A stretch of DNA of 5,018 bases, from the IMG/VR virus record IMGVR_UViG_2563366829_000009, positions 1-5,018 of that record; one strand, written 5' to 3'. The stretch's first letter is position 1; each line of letters starts with the position of its first letter. Positions 1 to 5,018 of this stretch are shown in pieces. Made by a program: the position numbers and the translations under genes. The notes below the pieces were generated by a model, which had not been told where the DNA came from, ran no database searches, and saw only the letters and a list, made by a program, of their open reading frames with translations. The stretch comes from a virus (taxonomy: Duplodnaviria > Heunggongvirae > Uroviricota > Caudoviricetes).

Positions 1-202
1 CGATAAAGCGTGACTACATCAGTGTCATGCCCAAACCAGACGGGTTAACGGCAGCAAAGAACCTTGCAGAGGCGTTCGAGCATTATAACGAATGGCATCC
101 GCATAGTGCACTGGGTTATCGCTCGCCACGGGAATATCTACGGCAGCAAGCCAGTAATGGGTTAAGTGATAACAGGTGTCTGGAAATATAGGGGCAAATC
201 CA
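1..202 (+). mobile_element. IS2-like insertion sequence, right end (partial; element continues beyond window start)
   Basis: Frame-3 translation of 3-191 gives a DDE-transposase C-terminus (...[36 protein letters not shown]) that I recognise as IS2 OrfB. The sequence after the stop (GGGGCAAATCCA, ending at 202) matches my memory of the IS2 right terminus. The minus-strand reading frame of the neighbouring gene changes character exactly at 202/203. The target-site duplication cannot be checked because the left end is outside the window. Confidence 0.78.
3..191 (+). CDS. insD: IS2-family transposase OrfB (InsD-like), C-terminal 62 codons, 5'-partial
   Basis: Open frame from the window edge to TAG at 189-191. 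The translation [62 protein letters not shown] is a typical IS3-family/IS2 transposase C-terminal tail. Confidence 0.75.
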
Positions 203-433
203 GCCGATAAGAATTGATGCTGCTGGTTTGTAAAAGAGAAGGCCGCAAAGAAAGCTGAGCATCGACAGGAGCACCCGGCGACGGATGGGGTACTCTACTG
301 CAGAGGTAACAAAAATTACCACCCCAGCCAAAGCCCCTAAAGCAACCTCCGGAGGGACACCTGCAATAACTGCAGCAAGAGAACCAAAACTAAGCAACTG
401 ATTTAATTGCTCATTTGTTACTTGAGCAGACAT
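203..433 (-). pseudogene. Small hydrophobic membrane protein gene (holin-like or lysogenic-conversion-like), N-terminal 77 codons native, truncated and fused into IS2
   Basis: ATG at 433-431 is preceded by AGGAGA (rc of 438-443) at 5-nt spacing. Residues 1-77 (MSAQVTNEQLNQLLSFGSLAAVIAGVPPEVALGALAGVVIFVTSAVEYPIRRRVLLSMLSFLCGLLFYKPAASILIG) contain two or three hydrophobic helices. Codon 78 onward (WICPYISRH..., down to 116) lies inside the IS2 terminus, so the 105-aa ORF in the track is a fusion artefact. The original C-terminus is lost or displaced. Confidence 0.55.
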
Positions 434-714: not shown

Positions 715-741
715 CCCGCAATATTTTGCGGGCTTTTTTTT
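715..741 (+). terminator. Intrinsic terminator-like hairpin (CCCGCAA-TATT-TTGCGGG) followed by a T8 run, oriented for plus-strand transcription; may act bidirectionally
   Basis: 7-bp GC-rich stem 715-721/726-732 with a 4-nt loop, then T734-T741. The T-run overlaps the tailspike stop codon (rc of 740-742 = TAA). On the minus strand the hairpin is followed only by UAUCAAAAAC, so termination of the tailspike transcript here would be weak. Confidence 0.55.
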
Positions 742-3700
742 AACGTTCTTCCAGAGACTGAACCCGCTCTTTTATCTTATCCATTTCTCTGCGCTGCCAT
801 GCTGCCTCGATATAGAATAAGAGATCAGGTCTGACCCCCCATCTAGATCCTGCTGGCGTTATTTCAACGCGCTCAATGATGTCTTCTATTACCATCACTG
901 GATTATCATCATCATCAACAATGATGCTCCCGTCATTATCAGTCAGCGGCATTTCCCTTTGGCCAGTAATGACGTCATCATATACTGCGGGATAATCGTC
1001 ATAGCAAAGAAAGGCATAGCGGCATGTTGTGCTTTCTTCTTCCATGAGTCCGTGAGAAATAAGAACATCACGAAGTTGCTGCGCGATTACACCATGATGT
1101 ATCCTCGCCCCTTCTTCCCCCTTTATAGCGACAGCGTTCAGCCATTTATAAGCGATATACCTGACGTCACCCCAGGCATCCAGCAATGCTTCGTCAGGAG
1201 AGACCGGCTCTGTCTTTAATGTTCCGTCACTGGTAACCACAGGATTGGAGCCAAGATAAACTGTCGAGAACCTGTTTCCCGGACCACCAAGAGCATTTAC
1301 ATTATCAAGATAAGGTTTAACATCTCCGTTCTCAAAAAGATGTTCGAGTGCGTTATATACCGCGCGACGTGGAGTACTGCTTCCGGAACCATGCAACGTT
1401 ATCATTGCACCATCTGCTGAAGACGTTGTTTCACCGCCGCTAACGATTAATCTCTGAGCGGTAACATCATCAGACGGTACTTTCTTCGCAATAATGGCGT
1501 AATTACCCTCAAGTTTGACTTCCGCGCGAACTTGTCCTGATGTACCTGCATGGACAGTCAGTGACTGGACGGCAACATCATCTGTGAAATCAACGGGTAC
1601 AGGAACCGTCCTCACGCCTGACGTCGACATAAAAGTAGGAAGCGTTCTGTTAGGAGTGGCTCCGTAGACAAAATCCCTTGAAACAAATTCTTCCTGTTTA
1701 ATTTTCACCCTGAAACAATACAAATCAGCCGGGTGACCATCGTGAACATAAGGATATTTTCTGTTGTTATCCCCTATGCTCCATGGGTTTAGAAAGTCTT
1801 CCCCACCGAAAATGTAGTACAGCCAGTTGTCTTTGATACAAACTGAACCAACACCAACCGCAGAGTTAACTATTCCGCCCTGATAAATCTGATCAGTAAC
1901 ATTAACCCACTCTACATTATCCAGACTCCACTCATTGACGTTAACTCTGGTCATAAATGTTCTTGGATAATTTCCTGCATAACGGTTATCAGGTTCTCCT
2001 CCTTCCCACTCACCAAATGCGCGCTCACTGCCAAAAATAATCAGCTCATCGCCAACTTTGGCAAAAGGAAGGTTTGAGTGATGAACATTATTTGGGAAGC
2101 GAAGAGAATTCCATGATGTACCTAAATCAGAGCTTCTGTGCAATGAACTACCGGGTTGAGTACTTAATGTCCCCCTGGTCGTCAGATACAGAATGCCATC
2201 ATAATATTTTACACATGGCTCAGATGCATTCGCCTCATATTCTACAGGTATGCGTCTGCGAACAAAGCTACCAGGAGAACCGAAAGCATCAGAGAAATAG
2301 AGTATCCCAAGCTCGCGTGGACCAATATCACCATTATGGTAGCCAACAGCAAAACTGTTATCGCTAATCGTCGCAAAACTGTGAATCTCAGTAACAGGAG
2401 TGCTTCCGTCAACAAAAGAAGGAATAGTTCCAAGACTGGTTTTTCTCCATGGTGACGAGTGAAATGATGTGCCAAAACTCCAGTATCTACCCTCGTTATT
2501 CTGATCCACATCCTGGGTATTTTGCGTCGTAACTGTAAAGGTATTTTTATCAATAACAGTAGTCACCGTCATATTCCCGGTAACACCTGTAACACCAGAG
2601 TTTGAGAAGTTGACAAAATCACCAGCAAATAATCCGTGATCAGTAATGCGAATATAAGCGACTTGCTGATTTGCTGCTTTCGTTATACCACCATAAACGC
2701 GAAGGCTGCGACTCATTGGGCGATCCCACAACTCTGCAACCTGCAGTTTATTTCCTCTCACGGTCCGCGTCTCAATTACAGCAAAAAGGCGATTTCTGAC
2801 AACCCCCATACTCATGCAGTGATAGTTAACTGTGGGATAGTTTTCATGTAAATCTGTAAGCCATTCCGGCGTTGTCCAGGTCTTCCCGTCATCTCCTGAG
2901 CGAACCCATGCAACATGGAGGTTATTTACACCATGGCGGTCTCCAGCCATAAAAGGCGCATAGATGACATTGTCATATACAAACGTTTTATCCTGCGTCC
3001 AGGCGTTGTACCACGGTGTATCTGTAATTTTAAATAACTCTCCCTGGATAAAATCTTCAGAAGCATAAAAAAGAGGCTGGCCCGGTATTCTCTCAAATAA
3101 AAAACGAGCATTTTTAAATCGACTGACATCCGGAAGAGTTGATACTTTAAAAGTAAGCCCTAATCCGTCAATTTTATAACCTGGAGATGAGGCTTCAAGG
3201 CACGCGCTTATTGCAGTGGAATCGTCATTTATACCATCACCAACAGCTCCAAAATCTTTGGGGCTAATAGCATCACGCATTTTATCCTGGAACGTTCGGT
3301 ACACAGCCCCAGAACCATACTGAATAAACCAACCAAAACCACCAACAACTCCGGCGATTGCAGCATCGACATAATTACGCATTGAGCGATTATTTACAGC
3401 GTCCTGCTCAAATGATGGATCTGCAAGGTTAGAAATTTTGTTTTGCTTTGCATCGTAATATTTTGCAAGCAAAGATGGTTTCATCAATGCACGTCTGAAC
3501 CACCCAAAACATTGCTGGATCAGCATCGTCAGGTAGTCAAAGGCATCTTCATGCACTTCGGGGAAAAATTTTCCCTGATTGCGAAGGTCTGTGTCCTGCA
3601 CTACATCAAGCACACGATCTATCGTAATTCGCCATCCAGTAGCAAGCGGAGACGGAAGAACCACAGAACCGCCACTATAAGTGCCCGCCCCAGTTACCGT

Positions 3701-3859
3701 ATAACCGGTATCCAGGACCAATTCTGTTACGTTCCCGTTCAGGTCAGACACCTGAACAACCAGGTCTGATTTTCTGAAAATTCGAAAAGTATACGGAAAC
3801 GATGTCGTAACGCCGTTACCGGTGTATTCGTTGTGGTCAACTTCGGTTGAGACCGTCAT
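740..3859 (-). CDS. Phage tailspike protein, endosialidase-like (endo-N-acetylneuraminidase family candidate) with conserved N-terminal virion-anchor domain and C-terminal intramolecular chaperone domain
   Basis: Intact 1039-codon ORF. ATG at 3859-3857 with GGAGA (rc of 3866-3870) 7 nt upstream. N-terminus MTVSTEVDHNEYTGNGVTTSFPYTFRIF is a conserved tailspike particle-binding module, recalled as epsilon15-like. Two Asp-box (S-x-D-x-G-x-T/S-W) motifs: SGDDGKTW (aa 321-328, nt 2876-2899) and SSDLGTSW (aa 576-583, nt 2111-2134). The blocks VNYHCMSMGV, ITKAANQ and KYYDGILYLTTRGT resemble endosialidases of K1 coliphages as I recall them. C-terminal 162 aa carry the Ser-Lys dyad spacing (S877...K882) and ARIHHGVIAQQ typical of self-cleaving chaperone domains. 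Confidence 0.8.
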   Translation of the reverse strand: MTVSTEVDHNEYTGNGVTTSFPYTFRIFRKSDLVVQVSDLNGNVTELVLDTGYTVTGAGTYSGGSVVLPSPLATGWRITIDRVLDVVQDTDLRNQGKFFPEVHEDAFDYLTMLIQQCFGWFRRALMKPSLLAKYYDAKQNKISNLADPSFEQDAVNNRSMRNYVDAAIAGVVGGFGWFIQYGSGAVYRTFQDKMRDAISPKDFGAVGDGINDDSTAISACLEASSPGYKIDGLGLTFKVSTLPDVSRFKNARFLFERIPGQPLFYASEDFIQGELFKITDTPWYNAWTQDKTFVYDNVIYAPFMAGDRHGVNNLHVAWVRSGDDGKTWTTPEWLTDLHENYPTVNYHCMSMGVVRNRLFAVIETRTVRGNKLQVAELWDRPMSRSLRVYGGITKAANQQVAYIRITDHGLFAGDFVNFSNSGVTGVTGNMTVTTVIDKNTFTVTTQNTQDVDQNNEGRYWSFGTSFHSSPWRKTSLGTIPSFVDGSTPVTEIHSFATISDNSFAVGYHNGDIGPRELGILYFSDAFGSPGSFVRRRIPVEYEANASEPCVKYYDGILYLTTRGTLSTQPGSSLHRSSDLGTSWNSLRFPNNVHHSNLPFAKVGDELIIFGSERAFGEWEGGEPDNRYAGNYPRTFMTRVNVNEWSLDNVEWVNVTDQIYQGGIVNSAVGVGSVCIKDNWLYYIFGGEDFLNPWSIGDNNRKYPYVHDGHPADLYCFRVKIKQEEFVSRDFVYGATPNRTLPTFMSTSGVRTVPVPVDFTDDVAVQSLTVHAGTSGQVRAEVKLEGNYAIIAKKVPSDDVTAQRLIVSGGETTSSADGAMITLHGSGSSTPRRAVYNALEHLFENGDVKPYLDNVNALGGPGNRFSTVYLGSNPVVTSDGTLKTEPVSPDEALLDAWGDVRYIAYKWLNAVAIKGEEGARIHHGVIAQQLRDVLISHGLMEEESTTCRYAFLCYDDYPAVYDDVITGQREMPLTDNDGSIIVDDDDNPVMVIEDIIERVEITPAGSRWGVRPDLLFYIEAAWQRREMDKIKERVQSLEER
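743..1231 (-). other. C-terminal intramolecular chaperone / autoproteolytic domain (peptidase S74-like) of the tailspike; predicted self-cleavage between Ser877 and Asp878
   Basis: Sequence ...GSNPVVTS|DGTLKTEP... with Ser877 (codon 1229-1231) and Lys882 (codon 1214-1216) five residues apart, followed by DAWGDVRYIAYKWLNAVAIKGEEGARIHHGVIAQQLRDV. This matches the established Ser/Lys dyad architecture of the C-terminal chaperone domains of endosialidases and related tail fibres. Confidence 0.65.
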
Positions 3860-4054
3860 GTTAAATCTCCAGATAGTCGCAGCACCCGTTGCGCCGCATA
3901 TCTGGTTATTCTATTACCTGAAAAACCATATATGGATAAAAAGACTATAAATACCAATAGATATTACCTTTCGGGTAATTTGCAAAACGTGCTGGATAGC
4001 AAACAAATTATTTGTTACTGTATAAACATACAGTTATTGCATGGAGAAGATAAG
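3860..4054. promoter_or_regulatory. AT-rich divergent intergenic region between the tailspike gene (minus) and the small ORF (plus); contains a palindrome and candidate promoter elements
   Basis: 195 bp between two divergent start codons, each with a good RBS. Contains palindrome ATTACC-TTTCG-GGTAAT (3963-3979) immediately followed by the self-complementary hexamer TTGCAA (3980-3985), and TATAAA at 4021-4026 preceded by TG at 4019-4020. No hexamer pair with canonical 17-bp spacing was found, so the promoter assignment is tentative. Confidence 0.4.
3963..3979. repeat. Palindrome ATTACC-N5-GGTAAT (candidate operator or small hairpin), copy A
   Basis: Perfect 6-bp arms with a 5-nt spacer. The same half-site recurs at 3914-3919, 4321-4326 (within an inverted GGTAATTGCAAA motif) and as TTTACC-N5-GGTAAA at 4343-4359. 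Confidence 0.45.
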
Positions 4055-4312
4055 ATGCAGCAGTATCACTATCCACTGGAAGACGGATTTACCGAAAGGA
4101 TTCACACGCCGGGAGGCGTCAGGTCACTGGTGGAGGGATCGCACTTGATGAAATTACTCCGGGATCTCGATAAGGATGGATTTAATGTCGATGGCCCACT
4201 TGCCGAACTGACTGCACTGATTAACTACGTCACCAGCTCACAGATGTCTATGCAGGATCTGCAAACACATCTCGACTATTGTGCCGAACAATTACGAAAA
4301 CAAACCAGATAA
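4055..4312 (+). CDS. Hypothetical small acidic protein (85 aa), function unknown
   Basis: ATG at 4055 preceded by GGAG (4043-4046) at 8-nt spacing; stop TAA at 4310-4312. The ORF track start at 3932 adds 41 low-complexity codons from the AT-rich promoter region with no RBS, so the shorter start is preferred. Product MQQYHYPLEDGFTERIHTPGGVRSLVEGSHLMKLLRDLDKDGFNVDGPLAELTALINYVTSSQMSMQDLQTHLDYCAEQLRKQTR has about 14 D/E against 8 K/R and no hydrophobic segment; I do not recognise a family. Confidence 0.5.
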   Translation: MQQYHYPLEDGFTERIHTPGGVRSLVEGSHLMKLLRDLDKDGFNVDGPLAELTALINYVTSSQMSMQDLQTHLDYCAEQLRKQTR

Positions 4313-4330
4313 GGTTTGCAATTACCAAAT

Positions 4331-4374
4331 GGAGTGCTTATATTTACCTTTGCGGTAAATTTACATCGCACTCC
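4331..4374. repeat. Nested inverted repeat: GGAGTGC (4331-4337) / GCACTCC (4368-4374) enclosing palindrome TTTACC-TTTGC-GGTAAA (4343-4359), copy C of the ATTACC/GGTAAT-type motif
   Basis: Read directly from the sequence; lies 19-60 nt downstream of the small-ORF stop codon. Confidence 0.45.
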
Positions 4375-4385
4375 TCTTGTGCCAT

Positions 4386-4437
4386 AGTAATCGGGCACTG
4401 GCAAAATCCAGTGCCGGGATTGGTCTCCCGGATTACT
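4386..4437 (+). other. Compound stem-loop / imperfect long palindrome (candidate structured RNA element or protein-binding site)
   Basis: AGTAATC (4386-4392) pairs with GATTACT (4431-4437). Inside it is a perfect 8-bp hairpin GGCACTGG-CAAAAT-CCAGTGCC (4394-4415) and a second short hairpin GGGA-TTGGTC-TCCC (4416-4429). Confidence 0.35.
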
Positions 4438-4452
4438 ACAGAGGCACATATG

Positions 4453-4471
4453 CCGCATAAGCGGTTTTTTT
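4453..4471 (+). terminator. Weak intrinsic-terminator candidate (CCGC-ATAA-GCGG followed by T7) downstream of the small ORF
   Basis: 4-bp GC stem 4453-4456/4461-4464 followed by T4465-T4471. The stem is short, so confidence is low; it may act together with the upstream compound hairpin. Confidence 0.3.
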
Positions 4472-4566
4472 ATGTGTAAAGCGCACCTATTCTATGGTGG
4501 GCTGTGTGGGGGCACCGAAAGGTGCGCCGGGTTCCTTTGTAGCCGGTAAGACCAACTCTGCACAGT

Positions 4567-4599
4567 TCACCACCATCTGATTGGTCTCAGCGGTGGTGA
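4567..4599. repeat. Inverted repeat TCACCACC-N17-GGTGGTGA upstream of the antirepressor start (candidate operator)
   Basis: 8-bp perfect arms at 4567-4574 and 4592-4599. A second overlapping inverted repeat AGACCAA (4549-4555) / TTGGTCT (4581-4587) is also present. Located 27-60 nt upstream of ATG 4626. Confidence 0.4.
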
Positions 4600-4625
4600 T
4601 TAACCTAACTACAAAGGTGATCGCT

Positions 4626-4793
4626 ATGAATACCAAACCTTCCATCTTTTCCTTTGAGTCATCCTGCCAGATCCGTATGTTCATGATTGACGGAGAACCT
4701 TGGTTTGTCACCAAAGATGTGTGCAATGCTTTGAATATTGATGTTACACAAGCGAGAAAACTTGATAAAAAAGGCTGGAACAAAAAGGGGCTG
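4626..4793 (+). pseudogene. Bro-N-domain phage antirepressor-like gene, N-terminal 56 codons only; truncated by IS3-family insertion
   Basis: ATG 4626 preceded by AAGGTG (4614-4619) at 6-nt spacing. Translation MNTKPSIFSFESSCQIRMFMIDGEPWFVTKDVCNALNIDVTQARKLDKK... fits the Bro-N / antirepressor N-terminal pattern (F-x-F...IR...DGEPWF-x-x-KDV...L). The frame runs straight into the IS terminus TGAACCGCCCC at 4794, whose first three bases supply the stop codon. Confidence 0.6.
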
Positions 4794-5018
4794 TGAACCG
4801 CCCCGGGTTTCCTGGAGAGTGTTTTATCTGTGAACTCAGGCTGCCAGATCATCGTTTCCGATGGAAGCATAATAAGCTTTTTCTGCTTCTGCCGGAGGAG
4901 TATGGCCCAGCCTTTCCAGCAATCGTCGATTGTTATACCAGTCCACCCACGTGAGTGTGGCCAGTTCCACTTCTGCACGGTTTTTCCAGCTCTTACGGTG
5001 TATTACCTCCGCTTTGTA
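4794..5018 (-). mobile_element. IS3-family insertion sequence (IS629/IS3411-like), terminal inverted repeat and 3' end of transposase; element continues beyond window end
   Basis: Terminus TGAACCGCCCCGGGTTTCCTGGAGAG at 4794 is a characteristic IS3-family end (TG...CA). The minus-strand frame 5018-4836 encodes a DDE-transposase C-terminus. The target-site duplication cannot be checked within the window. Confidence 0.75.
4836..5018 (-). CDS. IS3-family transposase OrfB, C-terminal 60 codons, 5'-partial
   Basis: Reverse-complement translation YKAEVIHRKSWKNRAEVELATLTWVDWYNNRRLLERLGHTPPAEAEKAYYASIGNDDLAA* is in frame with the window edge; stop TGA is rc of 4836-4838. It is absent from the ORF track only because it has no in-window start codon. 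Confidence 0.8.
   Translation of the reverse strand, partial: YKAEVIHRKSWKNRAEVELATLTWVDWYNNRRLLERLGHTPPAEAEKAYYASIGNDDLAA

Follow-up and report, generated by a model that had tools for sequence, protein, structure and literature searches.

A predicted IsrK-type small RNA gene ahead of a C4 RNA gene and an antirepressor gene in a Uetakevirus-like prophage of Escherichia coli

Results

Genomic setting

The window, meaning here the whole stretch of 5,018 nucleotides that was analysed, was recognized as part of an E. coli chromosome with a Uetakevirus (epsilon15/phiV10-like) prophage. Positions 3860-4795 are 90-97% identical to phiV10, TL-2011b and their relatives, are 100% identical to E. coli MS 196-1, and match 543 of the 5426 complete E. 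coli genomes (~10%). The features identified are collected in Table 1. A small ORF of 85 aa (4055-4312) lies upstream of the stem-loop element that is the subject of this study, which is found 75-160 nt past the stop codon of that ORF; the C4 antisense RNA gene and the antirepressor gene ant follow. E. coli MS 196-1 has an intact ant gene (230 aa), while the window sequence diverges after 4794 and is 100% IS629 from 4796 onward. Since ant is cut by IS629, the module in the window is left without an intact protein output in cis. No RNA gene is annotated at the element in phiV10, TL-2011b, MS 196-1 or the other matching records.

Table 1. Features of the element and its surroundings, in coordinates of the window
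Feature	Positions	Strand	Sequence or remark	Basis
Endosialidase tailspike ORF	740-3859	-		
Palindromic operator-like site	4344-4358	.	TTACC-N5-GGTAA; immediately 5' of the sRNA promoter's -35	Exact pattern match
Sigma-70 promoter of the sRNA (predicted)	4360-4388	+	TTTACA 4360-4365, 17-nt spacer, CATAGT 4383-4388; TG before the -10	Promoter scan
Compound palindrome, 52 nt	4386-4437	+	Outer stem AGTAATC / GATTACT	DNA-level inverted repeat
IsrK-type sRNA, 77 nt (predicted)	4395-4471	+	Equivalent of the a1/b1 leader of the C4-ant operon	Rfam RF01394
Hairpin 1	4395-4414	+	GCACTGG / CCAGTGC, loop CAAAAT	Co-variation in relatives
Hairpin 2	4415-4430	+	CGGGA / TCCCG around loop TTGGTC; shows site a1 in the loop	Fold and Rfam
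Site a1	4418-4427	+	GATTGGTCTC; in the loop of hairpin 2	10-mer identical to a2; complementary to AGACCAA of C4
Site b1	4435-4444	+	ACTACAGAGG; single-stranded linker	90% identical to b2 (9/10)
Intrinsic terminator (predicted)	4452-4471	+	GCCGC-ATAA-GCGGT, then T7	Terminator-like score in scan
C4 antisense RNA gene	4490-4577	+	Predicted mature RNA ~4496-4574 (aligned to the 77-nt P1 c4)	Rfam RF01695
C4 segment b'	4534-4542	+	CCTTTGTAG; hairpin loop	P1 homology
C4 segment a'	4549-4555	+	AGACCAA; single-stranded	P1 homology
Site a2	4579-4588	+	GATTGGTCTC; putative C4 target in the ant leader	10-mer identical to a1
Site b2	4608-4617	+	ACTACAAAGG; putative C4 target over the ant Shine-Dalgarno sequence	9/9 positions complementary to 4534-4542
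ant, 5' fragment (Bro-N antirepressor)	4626-4794	+		Pfam Bro-N; PHROG 'anti-repressor Ant'

Identity and fold of the element

An Rfam scan of the whole window matched 4395-4471 (+) to isrK (RF01394) over positions 1-77 of the 77 in the model, with 74.7 bits against a cut-off of 50 and E = 3e-15. A full-length match above the cut-off makes the element a member of a curated sRNA family. The same scan gave a c4-a1b1 (RF03163) match at 4382-4434 (+) which overlaps the isrK match and, with 39.9 bits, stays under its cut-off of 46.7; the first 13 positions of that model align with the promoter -10 and discriminator, which differ in the window. The layout of isrK, in which two hairpins at the 5' end and a single-stranded linker precede a rho-independent terminator, was recovered by the minimum free energy (MFE) fold of 4395-4471 and by the terminator scan, and its genomic setting, upstream of a C4-like RNA (4490-4577) and a Bro-N antirepressor (from 4626), is likewise present. 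Judged from its sequence, the cluster of stem-loops belongs to the family as an ordinary member, being an E. coli prophage copy of a known sRNA (IsrK of Salmonella and the "a1/b1" leader of P1).

A preliminary description of this DNA had listed an outer stem, an 8-bp hairpin, a second hairpin and a terminator hairpin with its T7 run, all of which were recovered in place, and had considered the whole more elaborate than a plain terminator and perhaps a small RNA. Both of these opinions proved essentially right. As one perfect 8-bp repeat, hairpin 1 reads GGCACTGG / CCAGTGCC at 4394-4401 / 4408-4415. The 86 nt of 4386-4471 fold with an MFE of -33.3 kcal/mol against -21.4 +/- 3.0 kcal/mol for shuffled sequences (z = -3.95), and none of 200 shuffles was as good; folding and covariance search, two of the checks that had been proposed, gave a structure more stable than the shuffles and matches to isrK and C4 above their cut-offs. 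When the sRNA was folded in isolation, the MFE structure had the terminator formed, a1 in a loop and b1 single-stranded. A tRNA-like element was also considered and rejected, as had been expected, given that ARAGORN found no tRNA or tmRNA in the window and Rfam no tRNA match.

Survey of relatives

Relatives were collected from viral contigs with the search pattern GCAAAATC N6 CGGG N6-10 CCCG, in which the recognition sites were left free. The pattern returned 120 stretches; 97 unique sequences among them, each having a C4-like gene no more than 215 nt away, make up the survey set. The pattern fixes the loop of hairpin 1 (CAAAAT) and the stem of hairpin 2 (CGGG/CCCG), so that conservation of these two parts, being demanded by the search, is uninformative. 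The relatives that were sampled pass both the isrK and the C4 cut-offs, and the sample includes a Gifsy-1-like sequence (L006) in which the order is isrK, C4, isrJ. P1 itself, also in the sample, has Rfam matches to c4-a1b1 at 3218-3270 and to C4 at 3338-3423.

Hairpin 1 proved to be strongly co-varying. Its 35 distinct stems among the 97 unique relatives contain 97.8% canonical pairs, compared with 65% when partners are permuted, and every one of the six variable pairs shows many double changes (48-97 relatives). Around 40 cells are G-U and none is A-C; G-U being tolerated and A-C absent, the pairing is maintained on the + strand, as RNA. The terminator is similarly widespread, a run of at least five T being found in 95 of the 97 relatives, with double changes in some pairs of its stem. 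Measured from the base of hairpin 1 through the last T of the run, the element is 74 to 91 nt long in the relatives, with a median of 77.

Promoter, operator and outer stem

The predicted promoter is conserved across the family. Upstream of hairpin 1, and numbered relative to its first base, a -10 element lies at -12 to -7 (T69 A95 T79 A87 G/T T96; n = 97 relatives) and a -35 element with TTG at -36 to -34 (75%, 97% and 68% of the 97 unique relatives), the family consensus being TTG / TATAGT. The annotated -10 of the P1 promoter P1c4 (formerly P51b) occupies the equivalent position. From the conserved -10 and -35, the position of P1c4 and the numbering of G28 and G31 of IsrK, which places them in the a1 loop, we infer that transcription of the sRNA starts at ~4395, at the base of hairpin 1.

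The operator-like palindrome upstream of the -35 has a second copy at 3964-3978, giving two exact matches to TTACC-N5-GGTAA in the window against 0.01 expected. Its arms are kept, with a variable spacer, in 15 of the 97 relatives, and these constitute the Uetakevirus-like clade.

This promoter bears upon another suggestion of the preliminary description, namely that the element is the structured 3' UTR of a small ORF. According to this reading the element would be a plain terminator for the upstream 85-aa ORF, with the extra hairpins as stabilisers; it would suit the terminator scan, which recognized no other terminator-like site between the small ORF and the element, and the annotation of phiV10, where nothing but a 'putative rho-independent terminator' is noted at the homologous site. 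A conserved sigma-70 promoter, however, separates the small ORF from the element, and the same element precedes C4 and antirepressor genes even where the upstream genes are unrelated (sim in P1, antQ in Gifsy-1). That the family is tied to the downstream genes, and that a promoter follows the small ORF, argues that the element is not the 3' UTR of this ORF. Neither the full-length isrK match nor the co-variation of the a and b sites with downstream sequences described below would be explained by such a terminator, and the reading, largely refuted, is considered very improbable.

The outer stem of the 52-nt palindrome is a different matter from the inner hairpins. As an inverted repeat it extends over 11 nt (4385-4395 / 4428-4438) with 91% complementarity and a core at 4386-4392 / 4431-4437, and its 5' arm (4386-4392) overlaps the conserved -10 box and the discriminator. 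It is not conserved family-wide, the median duplex energy of the flanks in the relatives being -1.95 kcal/mol for own and -2.2 kcal/mol for non-self combinations, and it is strong (-8 to -9 kcal/mol) only in the GCCATAGTAATCGG clade, within which its variants (GATTACT, GGTTACT and AGTTACT) are non-compensatory. The notion that the outer stem belongs to the functional RNA was therefore rejected, its 5' arm being -10 and discriminator DNA and the flank complementarity being missing outside one clade. With the 5' arm inside the promoter and upstream of the start at ~4395, the outer stem probably lies outside the primary sRNA, and it could probably form only in transcripts reading in from upstream. 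The single compound structure that had been described exists as a palindrome in the DNA, its outer stem being clade-specific and overlapping the -10 box.

The palindrome might alternatively act as DNA, in the form of a cruciform, a recombination site or a protein-binding site; a recombination or binding site had also been proposed in the preliminary description. In favour of this stand the 11-nt repeat with 91% complementarity in the clade, and its overlap with the promoter, which could in principle affect promoter DNA. Nevertheless, the outer stem is missing from most relatives and varies without compensation in the clade that has it, and the G-T cells of hairpin 1 (~40, with no A-C) are compatible with pairing of + strand RNA only, which makes a DNA-level site extremely improbable.

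The C4 RNA gene and its complementary sites

The C4 antisense RNA gene (RF01695, +) was matched over its full length with 78.6 bits against a cut-off of 45, and begins 19 nt downstream of the isrK match. Neither this gene at 4490-4577 nor the a1 and b1 decoy sites had been noticed in the preliminary description. Segments a' and b' are unpaired in the predicted fold of C4. What C4 shows of features that bear on its release by RNase P is limited to a conserved UAU|GGUGGG 5' junction and an acceptor-like outer stem.

Both segments are complementary to two sets of sites, one within the element and one in the ant leader. Site a1 forms 7 bp with a', and the local duplex energy is the same, -9.2 kcal/mol, for a':a1 and a':a2; the complementarity between a2 and C4 extends to 13 nt at 85%. 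For the b sites, b1:b' comprises 9 bp including one G-U pair (-12.5 kcal/mol) and b':b2 reaches -12.6 kcal/mol, the single difference between b1 and b2 being one that retains a G-U pair with b'. Site b2 contains the AAGG Shine-Dalgarno sequence, 8 nt before the ant ATG (4626). When a read-through RNA (4395-4640) was folded, the MFE structure contained the cis pairings a1:a' and b1:b' (-100.5 kcal/mol, z = -5.2). Duplexes of whole molecules, C4 with the sRNA or with the ant leader, gave z values of only about -1.6 to -1.7, which are uninformative because intramolecular structure is ignored in such energies. Cofolding of the sRNA with C4 and of C4 with the leader likewise gave no gain over the monomers, as expected, since kissing-loop and loop-loop contacts are not representable in standard cofolding.

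An ORF of 28 codons is embedded in C4 (4494-4580) and stops 45 nt upstream of ant. No ORF was found between b2 and ant in the window, and a coupled small ORF like icd of the P1-type immI is accordingly absent from it.

Co-variation of the a and b sites

The matches are far better within a locus than between loci. Among the 97 relatives, the mean longest exact match of a1 to C4 is 6.75 nt within a locus against 4.43 nt for non-self combinations, and that of a1 to a2 is 8.99 against 5.29 nt; the corresponding values are 6.59 against 4.56 nt for b1 with b' and 7.68 against 5.22 nt for b' with b2. At least 23 types of a1 loop were distinguished, including GGCG, GAGA, AGGA, GGAA, GGTC, AGCA, TGCA and the P1-like GACA. 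For each type of a1, a' and a2 change jointly, and usually b1, b' and b2 do too. Two relatives near-identical to the window (L024 and L077) carry GGCG rather than GGTC at a1, at a' and at the start of a2. Co-variation in homologues, which had been put forward as a further check, was thus seen in hairpin 1 and in the a and b sites alike (97 relatives). Decoy, antisense and target copies that switch jointly across many types are the signature of an RNA-encoded hetero-immunity. These data directly support the assignment to the family, the structure, the promoter signal, and the three-way complementarity together with its co-variation.

In nearly all relatives b2 abuts or overlaps a GGAG or AAGG ribosome-binding site and ends 8-14 nt before the downstream ATG. 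The first downstream ORF, among 88 relatives, is of an antirepressor type (ORF6N 25, Bro-N 23, P22_AR_C 16, pRha 8, AntA 3 and KilA-N 2). In around 24 of the 88 the first ORF is short, with 63-81 aa, and these short ORFs may be icd-like.

A further contact described for IsrK, C18:G173, corresponds to pairing of hairpin 1, by its 3' arm, with the 3' strand of C4 (PMC4825925). In the family as a whole the pairing of these two strands is favoured by a real but tiny amount (-5.99 against -5.45 kcal/mol; 1 of 5000 permutations), and the reverse control combinations gave a null result family-wide.

Discussion

Proposed function

Taken together, 4395-4471 is most probably an IsrK-type sRNA gene that doubles as 5' leader of an immI operon of the P1 type, serving as a decoy for C4 and tuning ant. 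Transcription from its own promoter would yield an RNA that begins at the base of hairpin 1 and presents a1 in the loop of hairpin 2 and b1 in the linker that follows. Whenever the intrinsic terminator is effective, an RNA of ~77 nt would result, and transcripts reading through would carry C4 and the ant mRNA, with C4 excised by RNase P as suggested by homology to P1. Segments a' and b' of C4 would then pair with a2 and b2 ahead of ant; as b2 covers the Shine-Dalgarno sequence, this pairing would block translation of Ant, and the prophage would be immune. The near-identity of a1/b1 to a2/b2 suggests that the element is a target mimic. The two sets of sites may compete for C4, a1/b1 acting in cis when part of a read-through RNA and in trans when released as the 77-nt sRNA, and the decoy would antagonise C4 and so tune Ant synthesis, while the terminator would determine how much decoy is made relative to C4 and ant mRNA. 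Specificity, that is the immunity type, would be determined by the a and b sequences. The transcription start, the processing, the direction of regulation and actual termination and read-through are assigned here by homology, and a target mimic appears to be the simplest model that fits both of the studied relatives (P1/P7 and Gifsy-1) and the anatomy of the window.

Comparison with IsrK of Gifsy-1

IsrK of Gifsy-1 resembles the element in having the same three hairpins, a length of ~77 nt, and a C4-like RNA (the STnc1160/orf45 region) and an antirepressor downstream; it has its own promoter, as is predicted for the window. Its hairpin 2 loop pairs with the a' segment of C4, as it would in the window, and the terminator is intrinsic in both, that of Gifsy-1 IsrK being leaky. 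The terminated IsrK acts in trans on the isrK-orf45-anrP read-through RNA and raises anrP translation more than 100-fold, and the pairing of IsrK has been proved by the compensatory mutations G28A/C162U and G31A/C159U (Hershko-Shalev et al. 2016, PMC4825925). If the opening base of hairpin 1 is numbered 1 in the Gifsy-1-like L006, G28:C162 and G31:C159 fall exactly on a1:a'. Hfq binding and trans-activation of an antirepressor are known from the Salmonella IsrK experiments only (PMC4825925). In lysogens of Gifsy-1, transcription of both IsrK and STnc1160 is high (PMC7067206).

The two systems differ in several respects. Activation by IsrK is explained by way of orf45, which lies upstream of anrP and is coupled to it in translation (PMC4825925), and the window has no coupling in the style of orf45-anrP. 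With the C4-embedded ORF ending 45 nt before ant, an orf45-type coupling is unlikely in the window and the details must differ; with b2 directly on the ant Shine-Dalgarno sequence, neither an icd-type nor an orf45-type coupled ORF is involved. The a/b specificity of the window (GGTC / CTACAAAGG) is not that of Gifsy-1. The host phage of the window is a Uetakevirus-like podovirus in which the module lies beside the tailspike gene and has a palindromic operator at its promoter; moreover, no antQ is seen in the window, and its ant is disrupted by an IS.

Comparison with P1/P7, P4 and P22

In P1 and P7 the C4 RNA and its target share one transcript, from which C4 is processed; C4 blocks translation at a2/b2, keeping Ant off (PMC12197685). 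The GenBank annotation of P1 (L003) was used as the reference for anatomy, with a1 at 3256-3262, b1 at 3270-3277, c4 at 3344-3420, a2 at 3424-3430, b2 at 3453-3460 and icd from 3471. The window has the same order of promoter, a1, b1, C4, a2, b2 and regulated gene, with a1 displayed by the hairpin 2 loop and b1 following closely; C4 and its target are likewise served by one promoter, and b2 lies on a ribosome-binding site, which in P1 is that of icd. The a and b sequences define hetero-immunity. In P1 the regulated gene is icd, to which ant1/ant2 are translationally coupled with Rho-dependent polarity, whereas in the window ant would appear to be regulated directly. P1 has a C1 operator and the window phage the TTACC-N5-GGTAA palindrome. 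The a1 and b1 sites and the c4 antisense RNA of P1/P7 immI were reportedly described by Citron and Schuster in 1990; the P1 annotation labels the role of a1/b1 as 'putative' only, and we know of no study in which their function was established.

CI of P4 is a further RNA of the C4 family, and its transcript also holds two sites complementary to it, seqA upstream and seqC downstream. The processed RNA of P4 causes premature transcription termination of replication genes, as opposed to translational repression of an antirepressor, and a P4-type termination control is only weakly suggested in the window. SeqA was regarded as a structural homologue of IsrK by the authors of the IsrK study (PMC4825925).

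The immI region of P22, where ant is under the control of the sar antisense RNA and of arc-mnt, is similar in that an ant gene lies beside the tailspike gene of a temperate podovirus and is partly checked by a small antisense RNA. Unlike C4, sar is a true cis-antisense RNA from the opposite strand; it has no decoy sites and no sequence or structural kinship to the element in the window.

Attenuation as an alternative or additional function

The P4 model can be extended to the element, which would then be a C4-sensing attenuator that mainly sets read-through at its own terminator. An anti-terminator helix between GGCA (4443-4446, the 3' end of b1) and UGCC (4451-4454) would overlap the 5' arm of the terminator; C4 bound to b1 would break this helix, the terminator would form, and further transcription of C4 and ant would be switched off, resulting in autoregulation. 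The position of b1 immediately 5' of the terminator is consistent with this proposal, as is the fact that attenuation was raised by the IsrK authors for STnc1160 and is the mode of action of P4 CI (PMC4825925). An alternative helix is also predicted in most relatives in spite of differing sequences (GGCG/CGCC, CGCG/CGCG, AACGC/GCGUU, AGCGC/GCGCU and here GGCA/UGCC), with a mean z of -1.76 against linker shuffles and -7.33 kcal/mol for own against -6.89 kcal/mol for non-self combinations (13 of 5000 permutations). The size of this effect is small, however, and chance pairing is high because the helices are GC-rich and often self-complementary. The alternative helix (around -5 kcal/mol) is weaker than the terminator (around -7 to -8 kcal/mol), it is the terminator that forms in the MFE fold of the isolated sRNA, and constitutive STnc1160 did not lower the effect of IsrK (PMC4825925). 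Control mainly by attenuation is thus unlikely, although it could coexist with a decoy. Of the earlier suggestion that the element is an attenuator controlling read-through into the antirepressor gene, the role in ant control stands, and attenuation itself is possible to the limited extent that the alternative-helix statistics point to it.

A circuit that combines decoy and attenuator, in which the level of C4 would exert feedback both on C4 synthesis and on the transcription of ant, with more decoy sRNA being made in the meantime, is quite unlikely. To our knowledge, such a circuit has been proposed and never demonstrated at IsrK/P1-type loci.

Implications

Rfam isrK, Rfam c4-a1b1 and the a1/b1 sites of P1 are three descriptions of a single element. 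P1 and Gifsy-1 have already revealed the mechanism, and the current understanding is unchanged by the present locus. The element in the window is a clear, previously unannotated member of IsrK / c4-a1b1, with its own a/b specificity type, a clade-specific operator and a clade-specific outer palindrome, and E. coli Uetakevirus-like prophages (relatives of phiV10 and TL-2011b) accordingly carry an unannotated IsrK/C4 RNA immunity module beside the tailspike gene. It is a lesser and unlikely possibility that copies decapitated by IS629, such as the one in the window, are retained because their RNAs alone confer immunity to phages that share their a/b type.

Putative regulatory sites, ORFs and alternative pairings around the sRNA and C4 genes

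The palindrome TTACC-N5-GGTAA occurs twice in the window, and each copy is immediately followed on its 3' side by a hexamer resembling a -35 box: TTGCAA (3980-3985) for the first copy and, for the second, TTTACA (4360-4365), which belongs to the promoter of the IsrK-type sRNA gene. Amongst the relatives surveyed it was limited to the Uetakevirus-like clade (15 of the 97 unique sequences), where the arms are constant and the spacer is variable. The palindrome is probably an operator, through which one regulator would act on the small ORF as well as on the sRNA promoter.

The small ORF in question (4055-4312) encodes 85 amino acids, is a member of phrog_450 and starts about 20 nt downstream of a perfect LexA-box-like site. 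Its product shows homology to aa 147-228, the C-terminal portion of the downstream Bro-N antirepressor. The ORF looks like a small antirepressor under SOS control, neighbouring the RNA-controlled antirepressor.

A further ORF, of 28 codons, lies where orf45 is found in the isrK locus of Salmonella; it is probably a mere side effect of the RNA sequence. Two perfect inverted repeats of 8 nt were also found flanking or within C4, the antisense RNA gene. For the read-through RNA, the minimum-energy fold contains the helix of the second repeat, whose loop encloses the C4 target site a2. Pairing within the two repeats would give alternative precursor structures, resembling structures A and B of IsrK.

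Features located in the window around the sRNA and C4 genes
Feature	Position	Strand	Remarks
IS3-family element end	within 1-433		Transposase C-terminus at 27-191, rve_3 domain
Endosialidase tailspike, complete, 1039 aa	740-3859	-	Domains: N-terminal extension, beta-propeller, beta-barrel, tailspike domain, S74 chaperone
Palindrome TTACC-N5-GGTAA, two copies	3964-3978 and 4344-4358		Chance expectation 0.01
LexA-box-like site, perfect: TACTGTATAAACATACAG	4016-4035		Chance expectation 0.04
Inverted repeat, perfect, 8 nt	4481-4488 / 4520-4527		C4-flanking sequence with one arm of C4 first hairpin
28-codon ORF (MVGCVGAPKGAPGSFVAGKTNSAQFTTI)	4494-4580		Start at conserved UAUGG, C4 5' end
Inverted repeat, perfect, 8 nt	4567-4574 / 4592-4599		C4 3' strand with downstream GGTGGTGA

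Tailspike and prophage decay

The tailspike is a K1-capsule-specific enzyme carried by an epsilon15-like prophage. At one edge of the window, the IS3-family end adjoins a holin gene on the minus strand (ORF 116-433), which is labelled incomplete by RefSeq in E. coli MS 196-1; decay has thus reached the prophage on either flank of the block formed by the tailspike and immI, the adjacent C4/antirepressor immunity region. At the other edge lies an IS629 end (4794-5018) with 100% identity to IS629 of Shigella plasmids, inserted in the antirepressor gene after approximately codon 56. This insertion has spared the sRNA and C4 genes, and an uninterrupted antirepressor gene of 230 aa is present in E. 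coli MS 196-1.

Second modules and Rfam models

The same prophage in E. coli MS 196-1 bears a paralogous second IsrK/C4 module (about 9600-9900, minus strand) of another specificity (a = GGCG, b = CTAGTAGG), downstream of which are a hypothetical gene and a gene with an ORF6N domain. Two modules per contig were also found in several viral contigs (L033, L055, L062 and L083).

In several loci the same element is matched, with overlap, by both isrK (RF01394) and c4-a1b1 (RF03163), as at 4382-4471 in the window; despite this, clan CL00128 does not include isrK. Both the overlap and the absence are a matter of curation, not of biology. The first 13 or so positions of the c4-a1b1 model fall on the promoter -10 and discriminator; in phage P1 the match runs from 3218 to 3270, and 3219-3224 is the stretch annotated as the -10.
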